NCBI RefSeq assembly: GCF_963921235.1 | Contig: NC_086097.1 | Location: forward strand, 102,550,001 to 102,614,000 | DNA from: Mobula hypostoma | Lineage: Eukaryota | Direction: 5' to 3' | DNA length: 64,000 nucleotides | The notes under the pieces: generated by a model | Databases searched by the model: none | What the model saw: the letters and a program-made list of their open reading frames with translations, nothing else | Told to the model about the DNA's origin: nothing | Made by a program: the position numbers and the translations under genes | Shown here: in pieces, positions 1,390 through 53,576 of the stretch | Position numbering within the stretch: the first letter of the stretch is position 1 | Layout: each line of letters starts with the position of its first letter

Positions 1390-2727
1390 TGCTGGGTCTC
1401 TTGAAGAATATTAAGGTGGATAATTCTCCTGTGCCTGATGTGATTATACCCCAAGATAGTCAGAGAACCAAGAGGTGAGATTGCTAGGATTTTAACCAAA
1501 ATCTGTCGTCTCTATCTACAGTGAAGTCCCAGAGGACTGTTGAAGTACCCTAATGTTGCTTTGTTCAGGAAGGGAAATGGGGATAATCCTAGAAATCATA
1601 GACCAGTTCGTCATACATCAATGGGAAACTATAGGAGAGAATTCTTTAAAGTAGGATTTATGAGCATTGAGAAAACCATGGCCTAATTAGCGGCAGTTGG
1701 CATGACTTTGTTGTGGGATAAGTTTGTGTCTTACTAATGAGTTTTTTTTTAAAGAGATGATCAATGTAGGTAGAACAGTGAAAGTTGTCCATGTGGATTT
1801 TGGTAAGGCATTTGAAAGTGCTTTAATGCAGGCTCATCCAGAAGATAAAGGTGCATGGGATCCACAGTGATGGCCATTTGGATTCAGAATTGACCTTCCC
1901 ATGGTAGACAGGGTAGTGGTTGATAGTTTATATGCTAGCTAAAAGGTTTGATTAATTGGATGTTTGACTAGTGGTATTCTGCAGGGATTTGTACTGAGAC
2001 TGCTGCTGTTTGAGATAGAAATGACTTGATGAAAATGTGCATGGGCGTATGAGCAAGTTTGCAGTTGACAGGATGGTTGGTAGCATTGTAGATGGTGTAG
2101 AAGGTTGCGAAAGAATACAGTGGGATATAGATCAGTTGCAGGTGTGGGTGGACAGACAGTTTAATCCCTTTGGTATTGCACTTGGGGAGGTGGACTGTAA
2201 AGGGGATGCTCAGCAACACTGATGTATAGAGGGATCTTGGAGTCCAAGTCCGTATCTCCATGGAAGTTTATAGTGTGGTAAAGGTGGTGAATGGCATGTT
2301 TGCTTTTATTGAGGTATTGAGTTCAGAGTTCAAGTTGCGTTGCAGTTTTATAAAACTTCAGGCTGCATTGTATTCAATTCTGGTTGCTCCATTACAGGAA
2401 GAACATGGAAGAGGTGTACCAGAATGCTGCCTAAGGATAAGTGCTTTCAATATAGGTTGGACAAACCAGGGTTATTTTCTCTGGTGCAAAGGAGGCTGAG
2501 GGAAGACCTGATGAGTTTATAAAAGTTACAGGCATAGACAAGTTAGACAGTTGGTATCTTTTTCCCAGGGTTGAAATACCTAATGCTAGAGGGCAGGTAT
2601 TTAATGTGAAAGTAGAAAAGTTCAGAGATGTGCAAGGTATGTTTTTTTAAAAGAGTGGTGGGTGTGTGAAACGTGCTGCCCATGGTGATGGTAGAACCAG
2701 GCAGAGGTATTTAAGAGTGTATTGGAT
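1390..2727 (+). mobile_element. Degenerate CR1-like LINE (RT and 3' region), interrupted by an RTE; resumes at ~4965-5090
   Basis: Typical CR1 ORF2 remnants (GGATTTTGGTAAGGCATTTGA; CAGGCTGCATTGTATTCAATTCTGG). No long ORF. Start approximate. Confidence 0.7.
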
Positions 2728-4964
2728 CATCATCAGCAGGTGCCATGCCCAGTTTGAGCTTTGACTGCCATGGCCCACACACTCTTGTTTCGGGTCAAGT
2801 GGATCAATTCATTGGTATTCATTTCCAGTTGTCTGGCCGCTGTCTCCATCATCATTTGTCTTTGTCTTCTTCTTGCTTTCTTCCCTTCATTCTTGCCCAT
2901 AATTACCATGCATTCCAACTCCTCTTTCCTAATCACATGTCCAATGAAGTTGTGTTGCCTTTTCATGTTCTCATACATTATTTCTCTTTTTGTGTTTGCT
3001 CTGTTCATGACATCCTCGTTAGATACTCGTATTATCCAACATTCTGAGCTATATAACATAACTGGATAAATGTAACTTTTCAGTACTCTGAGGTGGGTTG
3101 TCATGCCTACTTTAGTATTGGTCAGTATACTCTTCATTCTCGTAAAGGTGTTTTTTGCCATCCCTATTCTTCTTTTGATATCCAAGTCGCACCTGCCATC
3201 TGATGTCACCCAGCTTCCTAAGCAGCAAAAGTTCTGTACTTGTTTTATATCTTCCCCATTTATTCTCAGCCTGCACATAGGATTCTCCTTCTTTTTGGAT
3301 ATCACCATACATTCTGTCTTTTTGCAATTGATAGATAGACCTATTTTTGTACTTTCTTCAACAATTATATCAATTAAGTGCTGTACTTTCAATTAACACA
3401 ACGTCATCTGCATATCTGAAATTATTGATGTTTTCACTGCCAACTTTGATTCCCAAGATGTCTCCTATTTTTTGTGATATTGTTTCACTGTACACATTAA
3501 ATACATAAGGGGAGAAAACACACCCTTGTCTAATGCCTCTCTTGATTTTCGTAAACTGACTCACTTCTCCATCTATTCTTACAGCGGCAGTTTGTTCCCA
3601 GAACAGATTTCTGATTAGGCGGAGGTCTTTCGAATCTAGATCTAGAGTTTTTTGTAATATTTCAAATAACTTATTGTGCTTCACTTTATCAAATGCTTTT
3701 GTGTAGTCAATAAAACAAACAATTCTTTTTGCACTTGAATAGCTCGTTTTGATAGTATGCTTAACATCAATATTGCGTTTCTTGTACCTTTCTCTTTCAC
3801 AAAACCACATTGTTCTTTGCCTATTTCAGCTTGTATCTTCAGCTCTTGTCATCAAAATTCTTGGAAGTATCTTGGTAATACGACTCATTAAAATTATGGT
3901 CCTATGTAATTCACATTCTATTGCTCCAGCTTTCTTAGGAAGAGTGATAAGTACTGATTTTTTTTTTCATCTCTTCTGGTATTATTCCAGTCTCATAAAT
4001 GCCATTGATTAAATCAGTGAGTTTTTCAATTCCATAATCTTCAAGGGTGATAATTTGTTCTGTTACTAATTCATCAGGACCTGCTGCATTTTCTTTCTTC
4101 ATCTTATTTATTGCATTATGAACTTCAGATTTTGAAATACTTGGACCTTCAATATTTTTCTTAATTTCTGGTTTTTCGCCTTGATCGTCTTCAAAGAATT
4201 CCTGAATATACTCAGTCCATGTGTTCATAATCTCATCTTTTTTCATGATACTGGTACTGTCCTTTGCTTTCAAACATCCACCTGAAGAACAGAGGAGCTA
4301 TTTACCAGTGATATTCTTGATTTATTGATGTAACCTTTTTGGATCAGTAATGGGGATTCTTTCTATTTGCTTACATTCCTGGTTTAACCATTCTTCTTTG
4401 GGTTTTTGACATAAGCTTTTAACTTTTTTATCTAAGGACTTATATTCTATAGAATTTGCTTTCTTCCGTCTCCTTTCTTCCATTAGATTTTTGATTTTAT
4501 CTGCCATCCATTTATTCTTTGTGTTTTTTTTCTTTTTTGGGAATCACTGACTGCTGATTCTACCAAGGCATCCTTTAGAGAGTTAAATTTCATTTCTACA
4601 TGATTGCTATCATCTTCAACAGATTCTATTTCTAGACGTGCAAATGGTCAAGGGATTGTTCAGGTTTTTGCTTCTTTAGTTTTTTAGGTATTACTTTTAC
4701 ATGACATACTAGGTTATGGTCACTATTACAGTCTGCACCTGGATATGTTTTGCATTGAGTCACTGAGTTTCTAAATCTTTGGTTTATAGTAATAAAGTCA
4801 ATTTGATTTCTCATGTTATCACCTGGACTTTTCCAGGTCCACAAGTGTCTTAGATAGTTTTTAAAGTAGGTATTCATAATGACCTGATTATTCATCTTGC
4901 ACCATTCTACCCATTTCTCACCTCTTTCATTTCTTTCCCCTAGTCCAAATTTTCCCATGATATC
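2728..4964 (-). mobile_element. 5'-truncated RTE-clade (BovB-like) LINE with frameshifted EN/RT
   Basis: ORF pieces GKFGLGERNERGE..TWKSPGD..RNQIDFI..YPGADCNSDH, CFIDYTKAFD, GIRQGC, NNFRYADD. (TGA)n tail at the 3' end. Candidate TSD TTGGAT at 2722-2727 / 4965-4970. Confidence 0.9.
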
Positions 4965-5722
4965 TTGGATAGTTATGAGAATATGCAGTATATGGACAGA
5001 TAGGTTCACATGCAGGCAGAAGGCATTAGGTAGCTTAGCACAGTGATGTGGCCTAAAGTGCATCCTGTACTGTTCTGGTCTCCAGTATGACTCTTTACGC
5101 AGTGATGCAGCCAGGAGCTTGGCAATGTACATATCGAGCTAAGTGCTACCATTGCAGAGTCACAGGAACCTCTGTGGTGTTTCCACTCTGAAACACAAGA
5201 TTTTGTTCATTTGACAATGATCATTTCATTGTTATGTTTTGACTTTTTATTGTTTGAATGGTAAGCAAAGATCTCAGTCAAAAATGGTACACAAATGTAA
5301 TCTTTTTAATAGTCTATTTTCATGTCCCAAAAATGGGCATTGCACTTGTTTCTGAATTTCTGTTATGTGTAGTCAAGCCACCAAAACCTGTGGTATTTTG
5401 TAATGTATTTTGAGTATTGCAAATAAGAGCTGAGACAAATATAAAAATGATGACAAGTAAACTGAAGAATACAAGTAGCAGAATTGCATGCTTCAATAGA
5501 ATCTTTGGCTAGAGGTTAAATGAGAGCAATATAAAATTTAATGGAAGTATTCAAAGTTGAAGGGAGGAGAAACATTTAGTGGCAAGGATATAGATGATCA
5601 AGGTTCATAAAATTTAAGTAATTGGTAAAATTAGAGGAAATTGTTTTTGCCTTATGATCTGAAAGGCTGGGTAGGTAGAAGCAGTTTCAGTTGCATCTTC
5701 TAAAGTGGTGTTGAATAAATAC

Positions 5723-5855
5723 CTGACGAAGGGTCTCGGCCCGAAACGTCAACTGTACCTCTTCCTAGAGATGCTGCCTGGCCTGCTGCGTTCACGAGCA
5801 ACTCTTATGTGTGTTGCTTGAAATTCCAGCATCTGCAGATTTCCTCGTGTTTGCA
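5723..5855 (+). mobile_element. Short PLE terminal-repeat insertion beginning at the hammerhead core (CTGACGAAGGGTCTCGGCCCGAAACGTC)
   Basis: Exact 12-bp TSD TTGAATAAATAC at 5711-5722 and 5856-5867. Sequence is shared with other PLE ends in the window. Confidence 0.85.
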
Positions 5856-6035
5856 TTGAATAAATACTTGAGCAGTTACACGCTGTAGGGATTGGATTAT
5901 GGGATTAATTGAGCAGCTTTATCAAGGATCTGAATGTGGATCAGCAGCCACATGCTGTTGTTCTGTGACTGATTATGATGTTTGACACATGACCATATTT
6001 TAACACTAGGCTTGTATCTTTTTTTTTCTTTACAG

Positions 6036-6114
6036 AGACTGTGCAATAGATCTTACTTGTGTACTATGCATGGACTGTTTCCAAAACAGTGTTCACCGAA
6101 ATCATCGGTACAAG
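6036..6114 (+). CDS. UBR1: UBR1 E3 ligase internal exon (~human exon 3), UBR-box zinc finger: (R)[26 protein letters not shown]
   Basis: Polypyrimidine tract + tacAG acceptor and AAG|GTATTT donor. 79 nt, phase 2->0. Translation matches the recalled UBR1 UBR box ([27 protein letters not shown]) better than UBR2. Confidence 0.95.
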
Positions 6115-6829
6115 GTATTTGTCCTATCTTTTTTGTTTTATTGTTTTTATACTTGAACGATAGCTGTTTCTAGAAAATTTTTAGCAGTTCTTTTTAGTTA
6201 GTGGAAGTATTTGAATGGGGATTGGGCGGTAGAAATCATCATGTAGGTTTTGTGCATAAGGTTGATTTTGCATTGCTAGCTATACTAGCATTGTTTCAGG
6301 CCTTGTAATGTTGCTAGTTTCAGAATATAGACTTTGTTTCTTGTTGTTCTGTCCTAATCAGAAAGCTGTGTAATTGGAGAGCAACTTGGTGATTTGATAT
6401 CACTTTCCTTCTGGGTGGTAAAGGGTAAGGGCTGGGCATTGCAGACGAAGACTTGCAGGAATTTTCAGTGGCATGTCTGAGTAGTTTCATATATACTTGG
6501 CTTTCTGCCTCTGATCTGTTATTACTGAGAATCATTAGGGAATATTAATAGCAGGCAAACTGCTCCTGACCCGTCCATGACCTGATTTTCTTGTGACAAG
6601 GATAGTACAGGAAGGAAAAACCTGTTTAGTATATTATTACAGCAGAGTTTTAGAGACTGAGCATGCTGTCCTTTGGATTGGACAAATGACAAAAATCAAT
6701 TTCTTTGTTTTGTGATGAGTTGCATGTTGAATCTGTGCCACACTTGAAAGATTGTAATGTATTATTGGACTGGTGACATGTCAGGAACACTCAGTTTTCT
6801 ACTGCCAGGTAGACTGAGGTGATGTTGAT

Positions 6830-7460
6830 ATTGAGGAAGATCATCTTGGGTTACATAATATTATTGGTCAGTTGATAAATTGGGTAGAGCATCGGCAGAT
6901 GAAATCCAATCTGATATATTTTGAGAAACCAAATAAGAGTAGGGTTAACAGTAATTTGTAGGCTTCTAGAGAGTTGAACAGAGGAACATTGTACAAGTCA
7001 AAGGACCCCTAAACATGGCAACAGTTAGTGGTGAAGAGGGCATACGGGCTAATAGACATCATTGGCCAGTGTGGAGAATATCAAGGTCATGGTAAACTTC
7101 ATAAAACTTCAGTTAGGCTTCATTTGGAGTACTGTGTGCAATTCTGCTTGCTGCATGGTAGAAAGGATGCAGTTGCTCAGAAGAAGATTATAGAAGTGAT
7201 TTTCCAGTCTGTTGCCTGGGCTGGATTATTTTATCTATGAGGAGAGATTGGATAGGTTGGTTTTGTTTTCATTGGAGCAGAGGAGTGGAAAGGCACCTGA
7301 ATGAGGTAAACAAAAATCTGAATGGCGAAAATGAGAAAAAATTTCTTACCATCTCTCCAAATGCAGGTATCTGGAAATAGAGGGCATTGGTGTAAGGTGA
7401 AGAATTAAAAGGGATCTTAAGTCCCACCTTTTATCTCAATGTAGTTAATGATCTTCAGTT
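6830..7460 (+). mobile_element. Degenerate CR1-like LINE 3' fragment
   Basis: ORF 7028-7240 contains the CR1 motif LHKTSVRLHLEYCVQF. Boundaries approximate. Confidence 0.7.
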
Positions 7461-8054
7461 CAAATTGAAAATTAAATGCTTGCATTGTTACAGAAATTGA
7501 TCTTGTTAGGAATGGAGATGAAGATTTAAGTATATAGAACATAGAACAGTTGCTATAGGGTCCTTTGGCCCACAATGTTGTGCTGATACTCCAAGATCAA
7601 TTTAACTCTTCCCTCCCACGTAGCTCATAATCTCTATTTCATCTATGTACCTAGTTAAGTTTCTTAAATATCTCTAATATATCTACCTCTACCAACAACC
7701 TTGGCAGCTCATTCCACAAACCTACCCATCCCTACAAAAAAAACTTACCTCTGACATCCCTTCTACACTTTTCACCAAACAGCTTAGTTATGCCCCTTGT
7801 ATGAACCATTTTTGCCCTGGGGAAAAGTCTTTGGCTGTCCAGTCTTATCTATGCCTCTTATACTCTATCAAGCCGCTTCTCATCCTCCTCTCCAGAGAAA
7901 AGTCCTAGCTCTCGCAATCTATCCTCATATGACATACTCTCTAATCCAGAGAGTATCCTGGTGAATCTCCTCTGCACCCTGTCAAACTTCCACATCCTTC
8001 CTATAGTGAGGTGACTGGAACTGAACTAAACACAATCCAAGTGTGGTCTAACCA

Positions 8055-8714
8055 CAGACATCCCACCTCTCCTGGAAGTTCCGGGAGTCTCCTGCATATT
8101 AATAGTGGCTCCCTGATGCCCGCAAATTATATACAATATCCCGGAAATCAATTTTTTTGAGAGTAAGCGAGAGAGTGCGAGAGCATGAGAGAGAGCGACC
8201 ACGAGAGAGGGAGCGTGAGAGAGAGAGAGAGCGCGCGCGTGCCATGGCAGTGTGTTCCAAAAAAATATAAAACGTATGTCACCCCAGACTACCCTAAAGT
8301 GTACCCCTGCCTAATAGGGGTCAAAAATAGTGACAGTGTTGCTCGCTGCACTGTTGGCAACAGTGACTATTCTATCTCCCATGGTGGGTTAAGACTGTTA
8401 AAGACATGTTGAGGTGAGTTGAGTAGGTGTCATTCGTTCATTAGCTTAGCTAATGTTATTTAAACTAAACACGAGGAAATCTGCAGATGCTAGAATTTCA
8501 AACATCACACATAAAAATTGCTGGATAGATGCTGCCTGGCCTGCTGCATTCACCAGCAACTTTTATGTGTGTTGCTTGTTATTTAAACTAGCTGGCTAGC
8601 TGCTAAAGAGCTACTCTATTGCAGACATCCCACCTCTCCGGGAAGTTCCGGGAGTCTCCCGCAAATTGATGGTGCTACCTCCCTGAAATGAGTTTTTGCG
8701 GGGTGGAATGTCTG
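8055..8714 (+). mobile_element. Non-autonomous DNA transposon with a BED-finger-like transposase remnant (hAT-like?)
   Basis: TIRs CAGACATCCCACC / GGTGGAATGTCTG and TSD TAACCA (8049-8054, 8715-8720). Peptide ARCTVGNSDYSISHGG. The left terminus is duplicated internally at ~8622. Confidence 0.75.
8468..8576. mobile_element. Inverted-structure PLE terminal-repeat insertion nested in the DNA transposon
   Basis: 14-bp TSD TGTTATTTAAACTA at 8454-8467 and 8577-8590. Head-to-head arms of the PLE terminal repeat. Confidence 0.8.
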
Positions 8715-9301
8715 TAACCAGCATTTTATAGAGAAACAACATTACCTAGTGGCTTCTGAACAGAGGAACAGGCCCTTTGCCCCATGCGACCCTTTTGAAT
8801 TCCTCCATTGTATTTGCCTCCCCTACCATCCATGGCAGTGCGTTTCAAATGCCTACCATTTGTCAAATATTGGTATTTGTTGTCTAAATTCTGTTTGGGG
8901 CCCAAGGATTGAGACTGGAGATTTTGTGGTGAAATAGAGATCTTTTGTATCCATTTGAAAGCAGATAGGGCTTTAGTCTTTATAGAAAATTATTTCTTTT
9001 TGCAAAAAGCTTTCAATATTAAAAAAAAATCCACAAGTCAATTTCAGAAAGCCAAAATGGCATGATAAATACGGTAAAACTCTGATAAAATACATTGTTT
9101 GAAAAATCCCAATGGAATGGCAGTGGTTTCACTGAGCTGTTTCTCCTGCTTCTATTTCAGCTCACCAGGGAACTGTCTCTAGAACTCTAAGCATCCTGGA
9201 TTCATTGCAAAATTTATTATACTATCTTTGACTCAATTTTGAACATGTACTGAGGTATTAATAGTAATATCCCAATGTTTGGAATATGAGAATATCCAAT
9301 A

Positions 9302-12340: not shown

Positions 12341-14130
12341 CTCAACTCAGTTTAATCTCCCGGATTCAATTCTTTCCTACCTACATCCATGACTCTTCAC
12401 GCACTCTTGATCTTAATGATTTCAAGTTTGTTGCCCCGATCGTCTTATTTTCACTATGGATGTCCAGTCCCTACACACCTCTATCTCCCATCAAGAATGC
12501 CTGAAAGCTCTCTGCTTTCAGGACACCAGAACCAAGCAGTTCCCCTCAACCACCACTCTCCTCCATCTGGTGGAACTCTCAATAATTTCTCCTTCATCTC
12601 CTCTCATTTCCTTCATACATAGTGGTGTAGCCATTTTGCATGGTTCCCAGCTATGCCTGCCGTTTTGTTGGCTCTGTGGAACAGTCCATGTTCCAGGCCG
12701 ACACTGGTATCACTCCCTAACTGTTCCTATGCTGCCTTGACAACTGCATTGGTGCTGCTTCCTGCACCCATGCTGAGCTCGTCAACATCATCAACTTTGC
12801 CTCCAACTTGCTCCCTGCCTTCAAATTTACCTGGTCCATTTCCCTCCTCTTTCTTGATCTCTCTGTCTCTATTTCTGGAGGTGTCTTATCTACTAGTATC
12901 TTTTTTAAACCCACTGATTGTCACAGCTTTTGGACTATACCTGTTCCTACCTTGCTACTTGCAAAGATACCATACCCATTCTCTCAATTCCTGTGCGCCA
13001 TCTCGTCTGCTCTCAGGACGAGGCTTTTCATTCCAGAACTCATGAGATGTCCTCCTTCAAAGAAAGAGGCTTTCCTTGCTCCAACATCAACTCTGCCTTC
13101 ATCCACATCTCTTCCATTTCGTGCACGTCTGTCCTCACCCCCATCCACCTGCCACCCCACCAGGAATAGGGTTCCATTTGTCCTCACCAACCACCCATCA
13201 GCCTCGGCATCCAGTACATAATTCTCCGTTACTTCCGCTGTCTCCAGTGGGACCCCACCACCAAGCACGTTTCCCTCCTGCCCTACTTTCCGCAGAGACT
13301 GCTCCCTACATATCTCCCTTGTCCATTCGTTCCTCCCCATTGATCACCCTTTAGGCACCTGTCCTTGCAAGTGGAACAAGTGTCACACTTGTCCCTACAC
13401 CACCTCCCTCATTACCATTCAGAGCCCCAAACCTTCCTTCTAGGTGAGGTGATGCTTCACCTGTGAGTCTGTTGAGGGCATCATCTGTATCCGGTGATCC
13501 TGTTATGGCCTCCTGCGTTTCAGTGAGACCCGATGTAGAGTGGGAGACCGCTTCACAGAGCACCTATGCTCCATCTGCCAGAAAAAGTGGCATCTCCTAG
13601 TACCCTCCTGTGCTGTCATGATGAGACCACACTCAGGTGGGAGGAACAACATCTTGTATTCTGTCTGGATAGCCTCCAACGTGATGGCATAGGCATGTCT
13701 CAAACTCTAGTAATTCTCTCTCTTCCCCACCCCCCTCACCATTCCCCATTCCTATTTTTCTCTCCTCTCACATTATCTCCTTACCTGACCACCTCTGGTA
13801 CTCTGATCCCTTCTCTTTCTTCCATAGCCTTCTGTCCTCTCCTATCAGACTTCCCCCTTCACCAACCCTGTATCTCTTTTCACCAATCGACTTCCCCCCC
13901 TCTCCTGGTTTCACCTATTGCTTACTACCTTGTACTACTTTCTCTCCTCCTCCACCCACCCCCACCTTCTTACTGACTTCTCATCTTTTTTTCTCTGGTC
14001 CTGCTGATGTCTCTGCCCAAAATGTCGACTGTATGATTTTCCATAGATGCTGCCTGGTCTTCTGAGTTCCTTCTGCATTTTGTATATGTTGTTTGGATTT
14101 CCAGCATCTGCAGATTGTCTCTTGTTTGTA
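12341..14130 (+). mobile_element. 5'-truncated Penelope-like retroelement (RT + GIY-YIG remnants), pseudogenised
   Basis: MDVQSLHTSISHQECLKAL, FKFTWSIS..FLDLSVSISG..LST..F.KPTD and CSQDEAFH motifs. GIY-YIG-type region at ~13440-13570. Decayed hammerhead at ~13996-14031. TSD TTTAAGATGC at 12331-12340 / 14131-14140. Confidence 0.88.
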
Positions 14131-14608
14131 TTTAAGATGCTGAGAAGGTAGGACAAAGGATAGATAAATAGGACAAGGGTTAGATAGAACAAATGGAATA
14201 GTTATGATGTGGTGAAGCTGGGATTGCCATGGGGGTAAGTTAAAGAGATCATCTGGCCAGTAGTTAAGGGGACAGTAAGAGGGAGACTATGAACAAAAGC
14301 TATGAAATTGGCGAGTAAGAATACACAGAAAGATAAAAATTGCAAAATACTAACCTATTGGACGTGCACAGCAGATTAGGATATGATAATGGAGAGAAAT
14401 ACTTAAGTAGAAGTGGCCAGAGAAACAGAAAATAAGTTACTTGAATTTGATGGTAACTTGATAGCACTCCTAGGATCTATTACCAGCTCACTAATACCTG
14501 AGTTTAAATAGCAATTAAGCAATCAAGCACACGAGCATTAATAGAAGGAACATACATCAAAGTTGCTGGTGAACGCAGCAGGCCAAGCAGCATCTATAGG
14601 AAGAGGTG

Positions 14609-14646
14609 CAGTCGACGTTTCAGGCCGAGACCCTTCGTCAGGACTA
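14609..14646 (-). ncRNA. Minimal type I hammerhead ribozyme motif in a Penelope-like terminal repeat (intact core)
   Basis: Minus strand reads UAGUC-CUGACGA-A-GGGU(CUCG)GCCU-GAAA-C-GUC^GACUG. It has CUGANGA and GAAA cores, stem I UAGUC/GACUG, a 4-bp stem II, a GUC cleavage triplet and palindromic ACGU in place of stem III. Confidence 0.75.
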
Positions 14647-14760
14647 ACTGAAGGAAGAGTGAGTAAGGGATATGAAAGTTGGAGGGGGAGAGGGAGATCC
14701 AAAATGATAGGAGAAGACAGGAGGGGGAGGGATAGAGCCGAGAGCTGGACAGGTGATAGG

Positions 14761-15618
14761 TGTGACGAGAATACACATAAAATTAAGATGTTTGCTGGCC
14801 TGGGTTAGCATCAGTGACATCAACAAGTGGTCTGCCACCTGCCCTCAGGGGAAGGAGAGATAAGGAACAATGGAGCAGCGTCTGGAGATGTGTAATGAAG
14901 GAACGGGGGAGAGAGAGCTGTCTGGAGCGGCTCCCCCTTTGAACCCTGAACTGTTTGAAGTGGTGGACAGGCGATGCCCCAGCAGGGGGATAAAAAGGGA
15001 CAGGTTCGCTAAGGCAGGACACACGCCACCCGAGGTAACGAGACCCTGGAAGCGGTGCGCCTCTCACGAGTGGGTGAGAAGTACCAGACAACGACCAGGG
15101 TGGAAAGGTACGATCAGCGGGAACCCAGTGTGTGTCCGCCCTTGCCTGGGTGCCGGGTTCACTGCAGAGGATCGACTGCATCTGGAGGAGGGGTCACAGT
15201 CGGTGACCTCAGGTGACATCACCAAGGACCCGCCCAAAATTGCTTGTGAGCAATCTCGCCGGTCTGTGAGTGAAGCCGTTCTGAATGATCAGTTGTTCCT
15301 GTTCTATCTCTCTCTTCCCCCACGTTGTCCATCGCCATGGCAACGATTACTGCGAACTGAACTACTAACTGGACTGAACTTTGAGTCACTTTTAAATTTG
15401 GTCATTTACCCCTAGACAACGATAGAGCTTGATTGATGCTGTTAATCTTAATTCTGTGCACATGTGTGCTTATCATCGCTGAACTGTTGCATTTATTACC
15501 CTTTCGATTACTGTGTTGCTTGTTTCTTTAATAAAACTTTCTTAGTTCTAGTACTCCAGACTCCAACTGAGTGATCCATTTCTGCTGGTTTGGCAACCTA
15601 GTTACGGGGTACGTAACA
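14761..15618 (+). mobile_element. Solo LTR (Gypsy-like), 858 bp
   Basis: TGTGACG ... CGTAACA termini, 4-bp TSD TAGG/TAAG, AATAAA at ~15530. Confidence 0.8.
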
Positions 15619-17304
15619 TAAGCAAAAGGGGATACGAGAGGATCATGGGACAGGAGGTCCGGGAAGAAAGACGAGGGGGGGGTGACCCAGAGGATGGGCA
15701 AGAGGTATATTCAGAGGGACAGAGGGAGAAAAAGGAGAGAAAGAATGTGTGCATAAAAATGAGTAACAGATGGGGTACGAGGGGGAGGAGAAGGATGTTC
15801 ATTGATGTCCGCCTGACTGTTCTGCCATTCAGTAAGGCTATGGATGACATTTTATCTCGGCACCACTTTCCTTCAGCAACCACCAATTCCTGATTTCAAT
15901 ATCTTAATGTATTGATCTGTCTTCAATATACTTGATGACCAAGCGTCCATTCACGGGTAGAAAGTGCTAAAGATTCACCACTGTCTGGATTAAGACATAT
16001 TCTATCATTAGACTTGAATGACTATGTTGAGACAGTTTTCTGATTCTAGACACCCCTAGCATCTTGCCTGTCAAGCCCTATTTGATTATTTCATTGAGCT
16101 CACCCCGTTCTCTTAAACACTATAGAATTTACAGGATGTTTAATTTCTCCCCGGAATCAATTCAATGAATATTGATGACACTCTGTTGCAAATGTATTCA
16201 TGCTTTGGTGGGGAGATTGTAGCACTACATAATGTCTCATAAGAGTCTGATACAATTGGAGTCAGATATCCCTATTCATGTATTCTTGTCCTTTGACAGT
16301 AAAAGCCAAAATATCATTGGTCTTTCTAATTGCTGCATGGTAATTTTCAGTGATTCAAGTATAAGGGTACTCTGAACCCTCAGTACACCTTTCAAACTTT
16401 CAGTATTTAAATACACATTACACTTTTTTCTCTCAAAGCGAATGACATCATACTTTGCATTATTTATTATTTTGCATGTTCTGAGCCCACACATTTAACC
16501 TATCCATATCTCCCAAAAGTCTCTGCATCCTCAGTCCATACAGCTGTAGTTTGGTATCAGCAGCAAAACTAGGAATTCTTAAGTTCAAGTTTGATTGTCA
16601 TTCAACTGTACAGGTAAATAAAGCCAAATGAAGCTGTGTTCCTCAGGGGCCAAGGTGGAAATCACAGAAGCACAGTAACACACAGTACATATAGAACATG
16701 TAATTATGAAAGCAGTAAAGCATAGTTACAAAAAATAGTCCAAATCCTTGTGTGTCAAGGCCTGTAGATTGGTGTATGGATATTGTCATGGAGCTATGTT
16801 TCTGCAAACACAAGCCTGCAGCAGTTGCCATCACATACTCATGCAGACACAAACACAACCCAGCTTGTCTTCTACCAACTGAACACTGGAGGGGCCAACC
16901 CCAACGCAGTACAGAATTCAGTCAGCTCTGGCGTCTCCTTATCCTGCGGTTGCAATAGGTGACCCCAAGGCAAAAAAGGCCTGTTCTGCGTCACAACCAA
17001 GGCTACATTGTTCCCCTGCCGTCAGCGACGCTAATGAAGCAGTGAATCAGACTTGGAACATTCTACATTACCAATGTCCGACAGTGTCTTGTGATCTCAA
17101 TAAAAACATCCAAGGCAATCATTCCATTTGTTGGGTCACTCAGTGCATCTGAAGTCCCTAGGTGGCTGAAACAGGCTACAACGTGGTTCAGCTACCTTGC
17201 TGTTGAGCAACTCAATAGACTTACACTACTTGGTGTTCTTGTGATTGGTCTTTTTTTTTTAAAAAAAGACCAGGGATGATCAATTGCAGCTTTAGAGAGG
17301 CTGC

Positions 17305-20161
17305 TGTAACTTCACATTTATGCGAGAAACTTATTTCTACCAACGTCTCCGTATATGTGTCCAAAACTCAGTTATGCGAGGAGCACCGCTTTCCCGCCAA
17401 TACAAGTCACGTGCGCGCCCCTCACAATCTCACTCCCGCCACTCTTGCATTGGTTTTGGCAAGGTGTGGATGCGTGATCTTGCGCTCTTAAACTTTTGTT
17501 GGTTTTACCTACGGTGCAGTGATTTGTGCTTGAAACATTTAACTATGCCTCCTCAGCGTCTGATGTCATGTCCTGGGCCATCAGCCGTGCGGCAGAGAAC
17601 CGCTTTAACACTTGAAAAAAAGTTGGAAATTATAAACAGCACAGCATCAGCTGAAGGTAACACAGCTCTGGGTCGCTACTGCCGGGAGCAGAATCTTGCC
17701 TTTAAAGTTATTTTGTTGCTTGACAGTGCACCAGCCCATCCTAAACATTTGGACAGCATTCATCCTAACGTAACAGTGCGTTTCCTGCCGCCTAACACGA
17801 CATCGCTGATTCAACCACTCGACCAAGGTGTGATCCACATTCAAGGCGTTTTTTTTTACGGAGAACTATCTCTCAGATGCTGCAAGCAACAGATGATTTT
17901 GAAAATCCCAGGAGTTTACCAATGGCGTGGGAATGGTGGAAGTTGGAACACTTGGCACAAATGGCGATGGACGTGGACCCAAGTTTAGAATGGAGTCAGC
18001 ATTTCAGTCGTTCCCTGCTGTCAACCCTTCTTCCCTACAAGCAAATTTATGCTGGAAAACAAAATGCTGCCAAAGAAACAACCCTTACCACTTTCTTCAA
18101 GTCGGTGTCATCTCCTGCTGCTGGCAGATCTAAGAGTTCTGTGGGTCTTCTCTCATCCCTTGCTGTGCTTGATATGATCCTGACGACAGTAACCATCCAC
18201 CTTATCTGTGTAAAGCTGCCCGACACCACAACAACCACTCATCTCCCGGAGCGAACACACCTGCCACTGTTGATGAGTACTATACACCCTAGGATGTTAA
18301 CTTTCTATGATTTATTACATTGAATATTACTGTAAATTGATGAAATATAATACAAATGTTGCCTTGTGGTACTGCTTTTGTGTCGTATTGGTGTGAAAAT
18401 GAATAAATTACAGATACAGGTTTCCCCGCTATCCGAAGGTAGAGCGTTCCTATGAAATGGTTCGTAAACCGAATATCGTAAAGCGAAGAAGCAATTACCA
18501 TTTATTTATATGGGAAAAATTTGTGAGTGTTCACAGGCCCAAAAATGACCTACCAAATCATGCCAAATAACACATAAAACCTAAAATAACAGTAACATAT
18601 AGTAAAAGCAGGAATTGTATAATAAATACACAGCCTATATAAAGTAGAAATACTTTTCCACAATCATTGCCGGCACTGTTCGCCGTAGCGAAAATCTCAC
18701 GCAAGCGCTGTCGGCAAAAGCGCACTTTCCAGTAACCTTTAAGCTATGAAGCTGCCAAATCATACCAAATAACACGTAAAAATACACAGCCGATATAAAG
18801 TAGAAATAATGTATGTACAGTGTAGTATCACTTACGGGAATCGGGAAGACAGCGAGCATACTCATGATGGTGTGCTAGGCTGAGTCGTCGAAGGTTGGGG
18901 TGGTGCAGTGGCCCCCACCCTCCGGGCAGCGAACCGATCCCGATCCACGAAGCACGCAAGAGTACAGCGGTGGCCGGGATGCACCCAGCACATCTTTAAG
19001 AAAACAGCCGAAATAAACAAGCTAATTAATTAGGTGCCGCCGGCACGTAATTGTCAGCCCAGATCAGAGGCGATTGCCAATTGTGTCGCCTCTGATCTGG
19101 GCTGACAATTACATGCTGGGCGGCACCTAATTAATTAGCATGTTTATTTCGGCTTTTTTCTTAAAGATGTGCTGTGTACCTCCCGGCTACCGCTGCATTC
19201 TCTGCGAATCGGTATCTGTCTGCGGCCCGGAGGTTGTGGTGTTGGGACACTGGGGTGTCGTCTGTTTCCATTAGGGCAGGCGGGTCATCTTCTATGACTG
19301 CCTGCCTCTGTCGAAGGTTGAGGTTTGTTGTCTGCTGTGGCTGATGTGGAAGGCTTGAAAAACGACAGTATGCTTGACTGCTGAGCCTCGCGCATTTTTC
19401 TATCATACAGGTCTTCGTAAGCAATCAAAGCATCTTGCAAGTATCCCCTAAACCGACATACCCTTTCAAAATTAAAGTCGTACTTTATCATTGCAGCGAA
19501 AATCTCACGCAGTTGCTTCATGTTCAGTTCCTGGACAACTTCACTTTCACTACTGCATTCGGTTTGGATTGTTATCCTTTCCTCTTCCAATTGCAACAGC
19601 TCTTTATCTATCAGTTCTTGGTCATGGGATACCAAAACCTCTTCAACATCATCTTCATCAACTTGCACAACCCAAACTCACTTTGTCCTTACTTCGTTCA
19701 CCACGATCAAAAAGCTTAATTATGTCTAGTTTTACTTTAAGTGCAACACCCTTACGAGCTCTTTCAGGCTTTTCCAAAACCTTAGAACTCATTTTGCAAA
19801 CGGATGCTCACAGGCACGTGTTTAAGCAATGCCGGCAAGAATGCAGTTCTGAATCCGGGAGAGAATGGCTGCTCGGGCCGTGTGCTGACTTTTTTTTTCG
19901 TGCGCTGCTTTTTCTGCGCGCTGCCTTTTTTCGTAACAATGAAAACACCTGTTAGCGAAAACGGGTAACTAATGTAGGTCTTCGTAACAATGAGGTTTCA
20001 TAAAGCGAATGTTCAAAAAGCAGGGGACACCTGTAAAACCTATTTAGGAAGCCCGCTGGAACGCAGCCCTATTTTCTCCATTTAAGTAATTACTCACATT
20101 ATGCGATTTCATATTATGCGTCGACTGCGAGGAACGTATCCCCCGAGGATAGGGTGTACTG
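17305..20161 (+). mobile_element. Internally deleted Tigger/pogo element, copy 1 (left TIR eroded), host of a nested Tigger
   Basis: LTLEKKLEII HTH start fused to LLLDSAPAHP..FLPPNTTSLIQPLDQGVI DDE motifs. Right end GATAGGGTGTACTG. Homologous to 37834-39140. Confidence 0.85.
18417..20033 (-). mobile_element. Nested Tigger-type non-autonomous transposon with a long internal palindrome
   Basis: TA|CAGGTTTCCCC ... GGGGACACCTG|TA. The empty site is visible in the second copy at ~37940. Transposase C-terminal remnant VDEDDVEEVL..HDQEL (ORF 19285-19668). Confidence 0.88.
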
Positions 20162-51819: not shown

Positions 51820-52372
51820 TACCTGGAAAACTCAGGTCAGGCAGCATCTGTGGAAAGAGAAATAGTTTATTGGGTCCAATAATGTAACTGAGGAAGTCTG
51901 ATGAGGAGTCTTTGGACTGAAATATTAGTTGTTTCCCTTTTCAGAAATGCAATCTGATATGCTTAGATTGTCCAGCATTTTCTATTTTTATCTCTGGATT
52001 AAGACTTCTGAACTGACCCTTGTGACACACTTTATATAGTCTCTATCCTTGCCTTCCTTGTCTGCATGAAATTTTTGTCATACTTTTCAAGTCTCCTTTA
52101 CTCAAAATATGAAGTATCTACCATGATAGATTTCTGCATACTTGTGTAAAATAATGCACATAAGCACAAACATTAGCCAGCAGCTTAAGAAGTATTACCT
52201 TGAGAGAGATCTGATCACTTAATCTGGAATAAGCTGTTTGTAGTATTAGTAAAATAGCAAATAATTGTGTACTGCAATTTGCTTCTATATTGAGTCATGT
52301 GTACTTATTGTTTTTTTTGTTTCATTGCAATATAGATCTTTTCAGTTTGGCAGTTTTGTGTTTCTTCTCTAG

Positions 52373-53375: not shown

Positions 53376-53576
53376 ACACACACAAAATGCTGAAAGAACT
53401 CAGCAGGCCAAAGAGCATCTGTGGAAAAAAGTACAGCTGACGAGTCCTGCTGAAGGATTTTGGCCCGAAGCGTCAACAGTACATTTTTCCACAGATGCTG
53501 CCTGGCCTGCTGAGTTCCTCCAGCATTTTGTCTGTGTTGCTCGGATTTCCAGCGTCTGCAGGTTTTCTCTTGTTTG
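53376..53576. mobile_element. Inverted PLE terminal-repeat unit with decayed hammerhead, ~105 nt downstream of exon 8
   Basis: 13-bp TSD TGTATTCAGTGTA (53363-53375 / 53577-53589) and long inverted arms. Confidence 0.85.

Follow-up and report, generated by a model that had tools for sequence, protein, structure and literature searches.

The question raised by this locus is whether 38 bases on its minus strand, read in an earlier note as an intact minimal hammerhead ribozyme in the terminal repeat of a Penelope-like element (PLE), are indeed such a motif and, if so, what the motif does, both here and in the elements from which this copy descends. We think it likely that they are an intact minimal type-I hammerhead motif in the 3' pseudo-LTR (pLTR) remnant of a young, 5'-truncated PLE copy, predicted to cut after GUC (between 14614 and 14613) weakly, and only with a second copy joined through ACGU or with the help of the PLE protein. 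The window, in what follows, is the whole 64-kb stretch of ray DNA that was analysed.

The 38 bases and the case for chance

Read directly, the minus strand from 14646 to 14609 is UAGUC-CUGACGA-A-GGGU-CUCG-GCCU-GAAA-CGUC-GACUG, and the parts of a type-I hammerhead fall exactly where they had been listed before:

14609..14646, minus strand: minimal hammerhead motif (direct reading of the strand, and the sole strict-descriptor match in the window)
14646-14642, minus strand: stem I, 5' strand, UAGUC
14641-14635, minus strand: core CUGACGA
14634, minus strand: unpaired A after A9
14633-14630, minus strand: stem II, GGGU
14629-14626, minus strand: stem II loop, CUCG
14625-14622, minus strand: stem II, GCCU, with U11.1 at 14622
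14621-14618, minus strand: GAAA box
14618-14615, minus strand: palindrome ACGU, without a loop, in place of the closed helix III of type I
14614 and 14613, minus strand: C17 and G1.1, with the predicted cut between them, after GUC
14613-14609, minus strand: stem I, 3' strand, GACUG

All 13 of the 13 conserved core letters of the hammerhead are kept (C3 U4 G5 A6 N7 G8 A9, G12 A13 A14, A15.1, U16.1 and H17). Stem I has five pairs, one of them U-G, and stem II has four, with a G-U at each end and the CUCG loop; an alternative register of stem II (A-U/G-C/G-C, with a 7-nt loop) is possible in this copy, and its pair 10.1-11.1 is G-U, unlike the conserved G-C. The cut predicted earlier between 14614 and 14613 agrees with the positions that the letters assign to C17 and G1.1, and stem III is, as had been said, no more than the palindrome ACGU. 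The extra A that had been noticed before stem II is there too, and PLE minimal hammerheads regularly have an unpaired nucleotide after A9 (PMC4209133). Among the sampled loci the 38-mer of the window is the commonest 38-mer of its family.

Could all this be a chance likeness within a repeat? The pattern CTGANGA-N8-20-GAAACGTC occurs twice in the window against 0.03 expected. A strict descriptor of the minimal hammerhead (core boxes, stem I, stem II, palindromic or complementary 15.2/16.2, and UH) matches the 64 kb once, at 14609..14646, and matches neither the reversed window nor any of 20 shuffles. In the 3.48-Gb genome the 28-base core CTGAYGAAGGGTCTCGGCCYGAAACGTC (Y at 7 and 11.1) has 27,736 + 27,850 = 55,586 exact matches and the reversed-pattern control has 0, which bears out the very large genome-wide family that the earlier note had foreseen. 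Every defining trait of the published PLE minimal hammerhead is present, moreover, and inside a PLE pLTR. What can be said for chance is that no Rfam hammerhead model scores the motif, whether at the gathering score or at E<=10, in a search with the whole 64 kb or with the 101 bases around it. Such silence is expected of a motif without a closed helix III, and the chance reading, to which we give next to no credence, is refuted by the pattern counts, the genome-wide exact matches and the descriptor controls. The curated hammerheads of Rfam, including Hammerhead_1 (RF00163), have the same core boxes and cut-site triplet, whereas the ray motif lacks their closed helix III and goes unreported at the thresholds tried.

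The weak Rfam matches that did appear (mir-2329-like, rli53, PrrB and the like) are sub-threshold and irrelevant. Elsewhere in the window, at 19049-19110, a 62-nt near-perfect palindromic hairpin reaches 51 bits against Rfam mir-2329 on both strands, where the gathering score is 90; it is probably a repeat-derived fold-back.

A broken copy and its parent element

Comparison of the surroundings by blastn with the window itself and with 30 genomic loci gave the layout of the repeat, and the copy that carries the motif proved to be a PLE fragment in two pieces:

14545..14760, minus strand: 3' pLTR-homologous part of the PLE fragment, made up of a CT-rich leader, the motif and a short-form 3' tail that ends at about 14545-14549
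14761..15617, no strand: unrelated insertion of about 857 bp, splitting the PLE fragment at a point 115 nt upstream of the motif
15618..15788, minus strand: upstream remainder of the PLE fragment (last part of the ORF and first part of the 3' UTR), 94.4% identical to positions 5745-5920 of locus L046

The first piece is 96.7% identical to L046 5916-6127 and, over 216 nt, 96.8% identical to the sister loci L009, L014 and L026. Colinearity with L046 is interrupted at 14760/15618, where the junctions overlap by 5 bases, and the sole other match of the insertion, at 75% and partial, is in L072. The copy is 5'-truncated at ~15788, beyond which comparison with the sampled genomic loci found no colinear PLE homology upstream, and it has neither the reverse transcriptase (RT) nor the upstream pLTR. 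The motif had been assigned to a Penelope-like terminal repeat, and in the full-length sisters that repeat is indeed the pLTR, of which the window copy keeps only the 3' homologous part. Since no other motif in the window passes the strict descriptor, this copy is without a partner in cis. It would seem to be an inert, dead-on-arrival fragment, and the intactness of its motif appears to reflect youth (~3% divergence) and not selection or function at the locus; an intact motif is what a neutral copy diverged by ~3% would show by chance.

The claim that a dozen relatives lie in the same 64 kb stands in so far as blastn finds them to be real repeat copies, but in every one of them the core has decayed or the 5' strand of stem I is missing. 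Several of these older sequences can be described individually:

5719..5819, plus strand: older-subfamily copy with both core boxes intact and C11.1, 5'-truncated inside stem I, with G1.1 changed to A
13114-14170, plus strand: older PLE copy, ~70-87% identical, with the end of its ORF at ~13114-13690
13995..14069, plus strand: decayed motif (~13995-14035) and tail of the older PLE copy
51891..51930, plus strand: hammerhead-like motif of a different old family, CUGAUGA-GG-AGUC-UUUG-GACU-GAAA-UAUU, with 3 of 4 stem I positions paired
53396..53525, no strand: old head-to-head inverted pair of the same repeat, with its junction at 53442/53443 and both motifs decayed

The exact 25-mer of the motif at 51891..51930 is unique in the genome. 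The older copy at 13114-14170, on the plus strand, meets the young copy tail-to-tail.

In its general form the repeat is a CT-rich leader followed by the motif and then by a tail of ~95 or ~140-165 nt. Longer copies have an ORF whose end lies ~300 nt upstream of the motif and which carries, by eye, a GVIY-x10-YIG sequence and a C-x4-C-x2-C linker, with a YIDD reverse-transcriptase region, again recognized by eye, further upstream. Against Pfam the full ORF scores 23.1 bits for RVT_1, under the cut-off of 29.6, with no match to GIY-YIG, and two ORF fragments matched no Pfam family; the nearest ESM-Atlas clusters of the full frame are animal RVT_1 + GIY-YIG proteins (score 0.97). The exact motif stands ~165 nt upstream of the ATG in 10 of the 19 loci that have an ORF start, and one-letter variants of it do so in 2 more. 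A 1043-aa open frame is present in each of three full-length loci (L166, L167 and L168). In L166 and L168 an exact motif stands on either side of it, both in the same orientation, at a spacing of 3514 and 3518 nt; in L167, a more complex locus, the two motifs are 4357 nt apart. The pseudo-LTRs of L166 and L168 are 734 nt long with 99.7% identity and 195 nt long with 99.5% identity, and the parent element looks recently active. Candidate loci at first look numbered 76,947 for the RT piece against 5,929 for the ORF start, and a 33-mer anchor in the tail has 78,402 exact matches in the genome.

Two other arrangements of the element were met among the sampled loci. On the reverse strand of L045, at 1861-5250, a 1130-aa chimeric frame runs from a LINE-like RT (FADD) in frame into a 5'-truncated PLE copy. 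L031 and L032 share a 3.6-kb unit (97% alike) in which inverted terminal copies of the PLE 3' end, ~870-930 nt long, surround a region without an RT frame, and this unit may have arisen by duplication or may be a non-autonomous derivative that has propagated.

Conservation, folding and the ends of insertions

With more than 55,000 exact cores, the family ranks among the largest collections of identical hammerhead motifs observed in a single genome. C11.1 is found in 9,280 of the exact cores, so that the remaining 46,306 (83%) have U11.1, as the window copy does, and in them the usually conserved pair G10.1-C11.1 is G-U. All six motifs that flank the three intact frames also have U11.1, and hence the proliferating lineage itself carries G-U at 10.1-11.1. 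Since C11.1-G12 is a CpG, U11.1 is probably a fixed deamination.

Variation within the family, and the points at which related families diverge from it, were taken from Logan contigs of 4 runs from four organisms, RNA- or DNA-derived, which were used for these two purposes only. In these contigs the block 14609-14645 is an island: related families diverge on both sides of it, most commonly with loose ends at 14609 and 14644/14645, and contig depth falls between motif and tail. Within the block just three variants, U11.1/C, C7/U and G1.1/A, reach at least 10% in at least one of the 4 runs. Other families keep the same architecture with different letters. Family B, with 30 exact copies in the genome, reads GGGU-UCCA-GUCC, and family C, with 4 exact copies, reads AGGU-CGUCA-ACCU with AGUU/AACU as stem I. 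Across families, changes on both sides of a pair are seen where C2.1-G1.1 is replaced by U-A and where 10.1-11.1 is G-C, G-U or A-U. An alignment of five rows has 92.6% of its cells paired, against 14-45% with slid partners, and four of its pairs change on both sides; family D, in which the register of stem II is shifted, was scored as partly unpaired in it. Strict-descriptor matches in the ~400 kb of sampled loci came from one family only and the other families were chosen by a core-box regex, so the conservation and covariation of core and stems that the earlier note had asked for are seen but, with five rows hand-picked in this way, are supportive and not strong. We infer that the motif has been kept by selection in the mother elements.

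Folding predictions are less favourable. The monomer has a minimum free energy of -11.0 kcal/mol as a rod in which G5-A6-C7-G8 pair with C15.2-G16.2-U16.1-C17, which buries both the catalytic core and the cut site, and the hammerhead-like fold of the monomer is predicted at -7.0 kcal/mol. For the dimer, a double hammerhead at -11.5 kcal/mol is set against an extended duplex, the predicted minimum, at -30.3 kcal/mol. Predicted folding would favour the inactive rod, on nearest-neighbour energies that ignore the tertiary contacts of hammerhead cores.

The 5' boundaries of insertions were determined in the first 100 tail-anchored copies along contig C1, with the anchor downstream of the cut site and no copy dropped, by alignment to 35 long references that were chosen solely by 5' extent, whether or not they had inverted arms. 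This alignment replaced an all-against-all estimate, which was confounded by the inverted arms. Boundaries near -207 are X-drop stops in a C-rich, indel-rich stretch and were binned as >70 nt. A boundary within 70 nt upstream of the cut site was found in 56 of the 100 copies. In 24 copies it lies at -38 to -28, the front edge of stem I, where ~7 would be expected from an even spread, and in 4 it lies at the cut site (-3 to +2), which is about the even-spread expectation. 5' ends accumulate at the motif's front edge and not at the cut site, which suggests that the RNA being copied is uncut. At the other end, every insertion in the 30 sampled loci runs 95-165 nt past the cut site, which means that the RNA that was copied had an uncut 3' motif. 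Of the minimal units inserted, 'hammerhead + tail' is the commonest, and there are two classes of 3' end, ~45 nt apart.

The hot spot of 5' boundaries, 28-38 nt upstream of the cut site, falls where ...CTTCCTTCAG meets TTAGTC, and the TCAGTT found there looks like an initiator. The place also resembles a splice acceptor (pyrimidine tract and CAG); copies that end at it have unrelated upstream flanks, which argues against splicing. Short 'hammerhead + tail' insertions at L005, L013 and L024 have target-site duplications of 12-15 bp, and at the 5' junction of some of them there are 7-15 nt of filler.

Insertions are also often folded back. An inverted arm lies within 311 nt in 35 of the 100 tail-anchored copies, and among the 17 pairs of adjacent anchors at most 1.5 kb apart (the same 100 copies, in the first 3.7 Mb of C1) 13 are head-to-head, 4 are direct and 0 are tail-to-tail. 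The junctions of close head-to-head pairs are mostly within or just upstream of the hammerhead, and priming of both cut DNA ends on the RNA tail would produce pairs of this head-to-head kind.

What, then, would the motif do in the mother elements? By analogy with the published class, two pLTR motifs, or motifs on separate transcripts, would pair through ACGU and swap stem I strands, and the swapped pairing would form two active sites that cut after GUC, probably aided by the PLE protein. Copying would take another route. Reverse transcription may start internally, in the tail, on uncut RNA and from both DNA ends, and would continue until it met the 5' end of the RNA or a barrier at the motif's front edge, where a stop would yield the many short 'hammerhead + tail' insertions and the head-to-head fold-backs. 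Most of the RNA that is reverse-transcribed would be uncut, with its 5' end apparently at the front edge. The genomic record suggests that cleavage is a minor or dispensable pathway, and it is likely that self-cleavage is both inefficient and dispensable for copying.

It could be argued instead that the motif is an efficient ribozyme in vivo, with paired pLTRs or copies in trans dimerizing and cutting the PLE precursor to unit length in a step essential to the life cycle, possibly by way of RNA circles. A role of this kind has been proposed in the published model (PMC4209133; PMC6765202), and intact frames flanked, at a spacing of 3.51 kb, by two exact motifs of the same orientation are in keeping with it, as are the conservation of the block across families with compensatory changes and the few copies (4/100) that start within 3 nt of the cut site. 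Moreover, an efficient ribozyme could leave the same traces, a conserved block and a motif retained in every full-length copy sampled, if its products did not serve as templates for insertion. Yet those few starts amount to roughly an even spread and not to a pile-up at the cut site, and the 95-165 nt that insertions carry beyond it mean that their 3' motif was uncut in the RNA that was copied. The most prolific subfamily has G-U at 10.1-11.1, predicted folding would disfavour the active form, and hammerhead mutants of PAc (Poseidon, Anolis) insert normally in vitro (PMC11167929), so that we regard an efficient and essential ribozyme as unlikely. If the chemistry is vestigial, on the other hand, the block may have been kept for a non-catalytic role, either as a site to which the PLE protein binds or as a promoter-proximal or 5'-end-defining element. 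This is a doubtful reading, if one to be entertained: the 5' boundaries of 24 of the 100 copies and most fold-back junctions lie at the front edge, the commonest minimal unit begins with the hammerhead, a rod-like hairpin is the predicted ground state, and the G-U variant has proliferated. A mere hairpin, however, needs neither the catalytic core letters nor GUC nor the palindrome, all of which have persisted both in the mother lineage and in other families, and the PAc motif does cleave with protein (PMC11167929).

It is tempting to speculate further that the ribozyme lies at the very 5' end of the element RNA. Transcription would start ~34 nt before the cut, at the initiator-like TCAGTT, and cleavage, by taking off a short capped leader, would switch the RNA from a capped, translatable form to an uncapped form. 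On this view the abundant 130-175-nt 'hammerhead + tail' insertions, like the fold-backs, would have been copied in full from short RNAs initiated in the pLTR and would be SINE-like parasites of the PLE machinery. We consider this quite improbable, and return to an inefficient motif, dependent on a second copy or on protein, as the preferred reading.

Comparison with known PLE hammerheads

The window motif belongs to a known class, the PLE minimal hammerheads of Cervera & De la Pena 2014 (PMC4209133), and is not a new idea; as these have been described since 2014, it adds little to ribozyme biology. In a full-text search of the literature, PLE hammerheads of cartilaginous fishes came up in no paper other than a 2026 preprint that has one chondrichthyan sample, and two supplement files of PMC4209133 do not mention shark, skate, Callorhinchus or Chondrichthyes.

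The 2014 description agrees with the ray motif on most points. Both have type-I topology with no helix III loop and a palindromic 15.1-15.2-16.2-16.1 tetranucleotide, CUGANGA and GAAA boxes, a U-H triplet (GUC), a short open helix I (4-5 bp), a loop-closed helix II, and an unpaired nucleotide between A9 and 10.1. In both, the motif is located in the pLTR of an element with RT and GIY-YIG, which for the ray holds at the level of the family and with putative domains, and in both there are thousands of copies per genome, mostly solitary and truncated and sometimes in close opposite-strand pairs. The pair G10.1-C11.1 is 'highly conserved' there, in contrast to the G-U of the window copy and of 83% of its family; as it is called highly conserved and not obligatory, membership in the class is kept. 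Helix II has 4 bp here and 7-8 bp in the Schistosoma families, and the 55,586 exact copies exceed the 4,000-9,000 motifs reported for coelacanth and Xenopus. The earlier note had said that PLEs carry minimal hammerheads with a palindromic stem III, proposed to cut as dimers; in the 2014 study such motifs cleave poorly in vitro and only as dimers or trimers (PMC4209133). The small PLE hammerhead variants of Lunse, Weinberg & Breaker (RNA Biol 2017, as summarised in PMC6765202) similarly have a short or absent stem III and are reported to cleave as dimers, as is predicted here.

Animal non-LTR retrozymes (PMC7229834; bioRxiv 10.64898/2026.07.22.740005) resemble the ray family in having type-I hammerheads from PLE pLTRs and short, non-autonomous units. 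They differ in that retrozymes are tandem arrays that give circular RNAs, whereas the short units of the ray are 5'-truncated or fold-back PLE insertions; the motif has no direct tandem partner in the window, and direct close pairs are rare in the sample of 100 copies (4 of 17 adjacent pairs). The hallmarks of endonuclease-positive PLEs listed in PMC8557442, namely pLTRs in partial tandem, adjacent inverted 5'-truncated copies, heavy 5' truncation and a one-sided tail of 30-40 bp, are all seen in the ray family as well.

An experimentally studied counterpart is the PAc hammerhead (Frangieh et al. 2024, PMC11167929), which cleaves with the element's protein and needs it; beyond the normal insertion of its mutants, no RNA-seq ends at the cut site are described there. 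In both elements the hammerhead is near the junction of pLTR and ORF, 3' ends are set by internal RT initiation in the 'tail', and there is no sign of cut RNA as template; PAc also uses both DNA strands, which fits the head-to-head insertions of the ray family. The PAc motif overlaps the ATG, whereas that of the ray lies ~165 nt upstream. Hammerhead-less PLE clades, for their part, proliferate well (PMC8557442). For transposon specialists the interest may be in the >55,000 exact cores, in the G-U pair of the most prolific lineage and in insertions whose 5' ends lie at the front edge of the ribozyme and not at its cut site, the latter two of which bear on the question whether PLE hammerheads are needed for retrotransposition.
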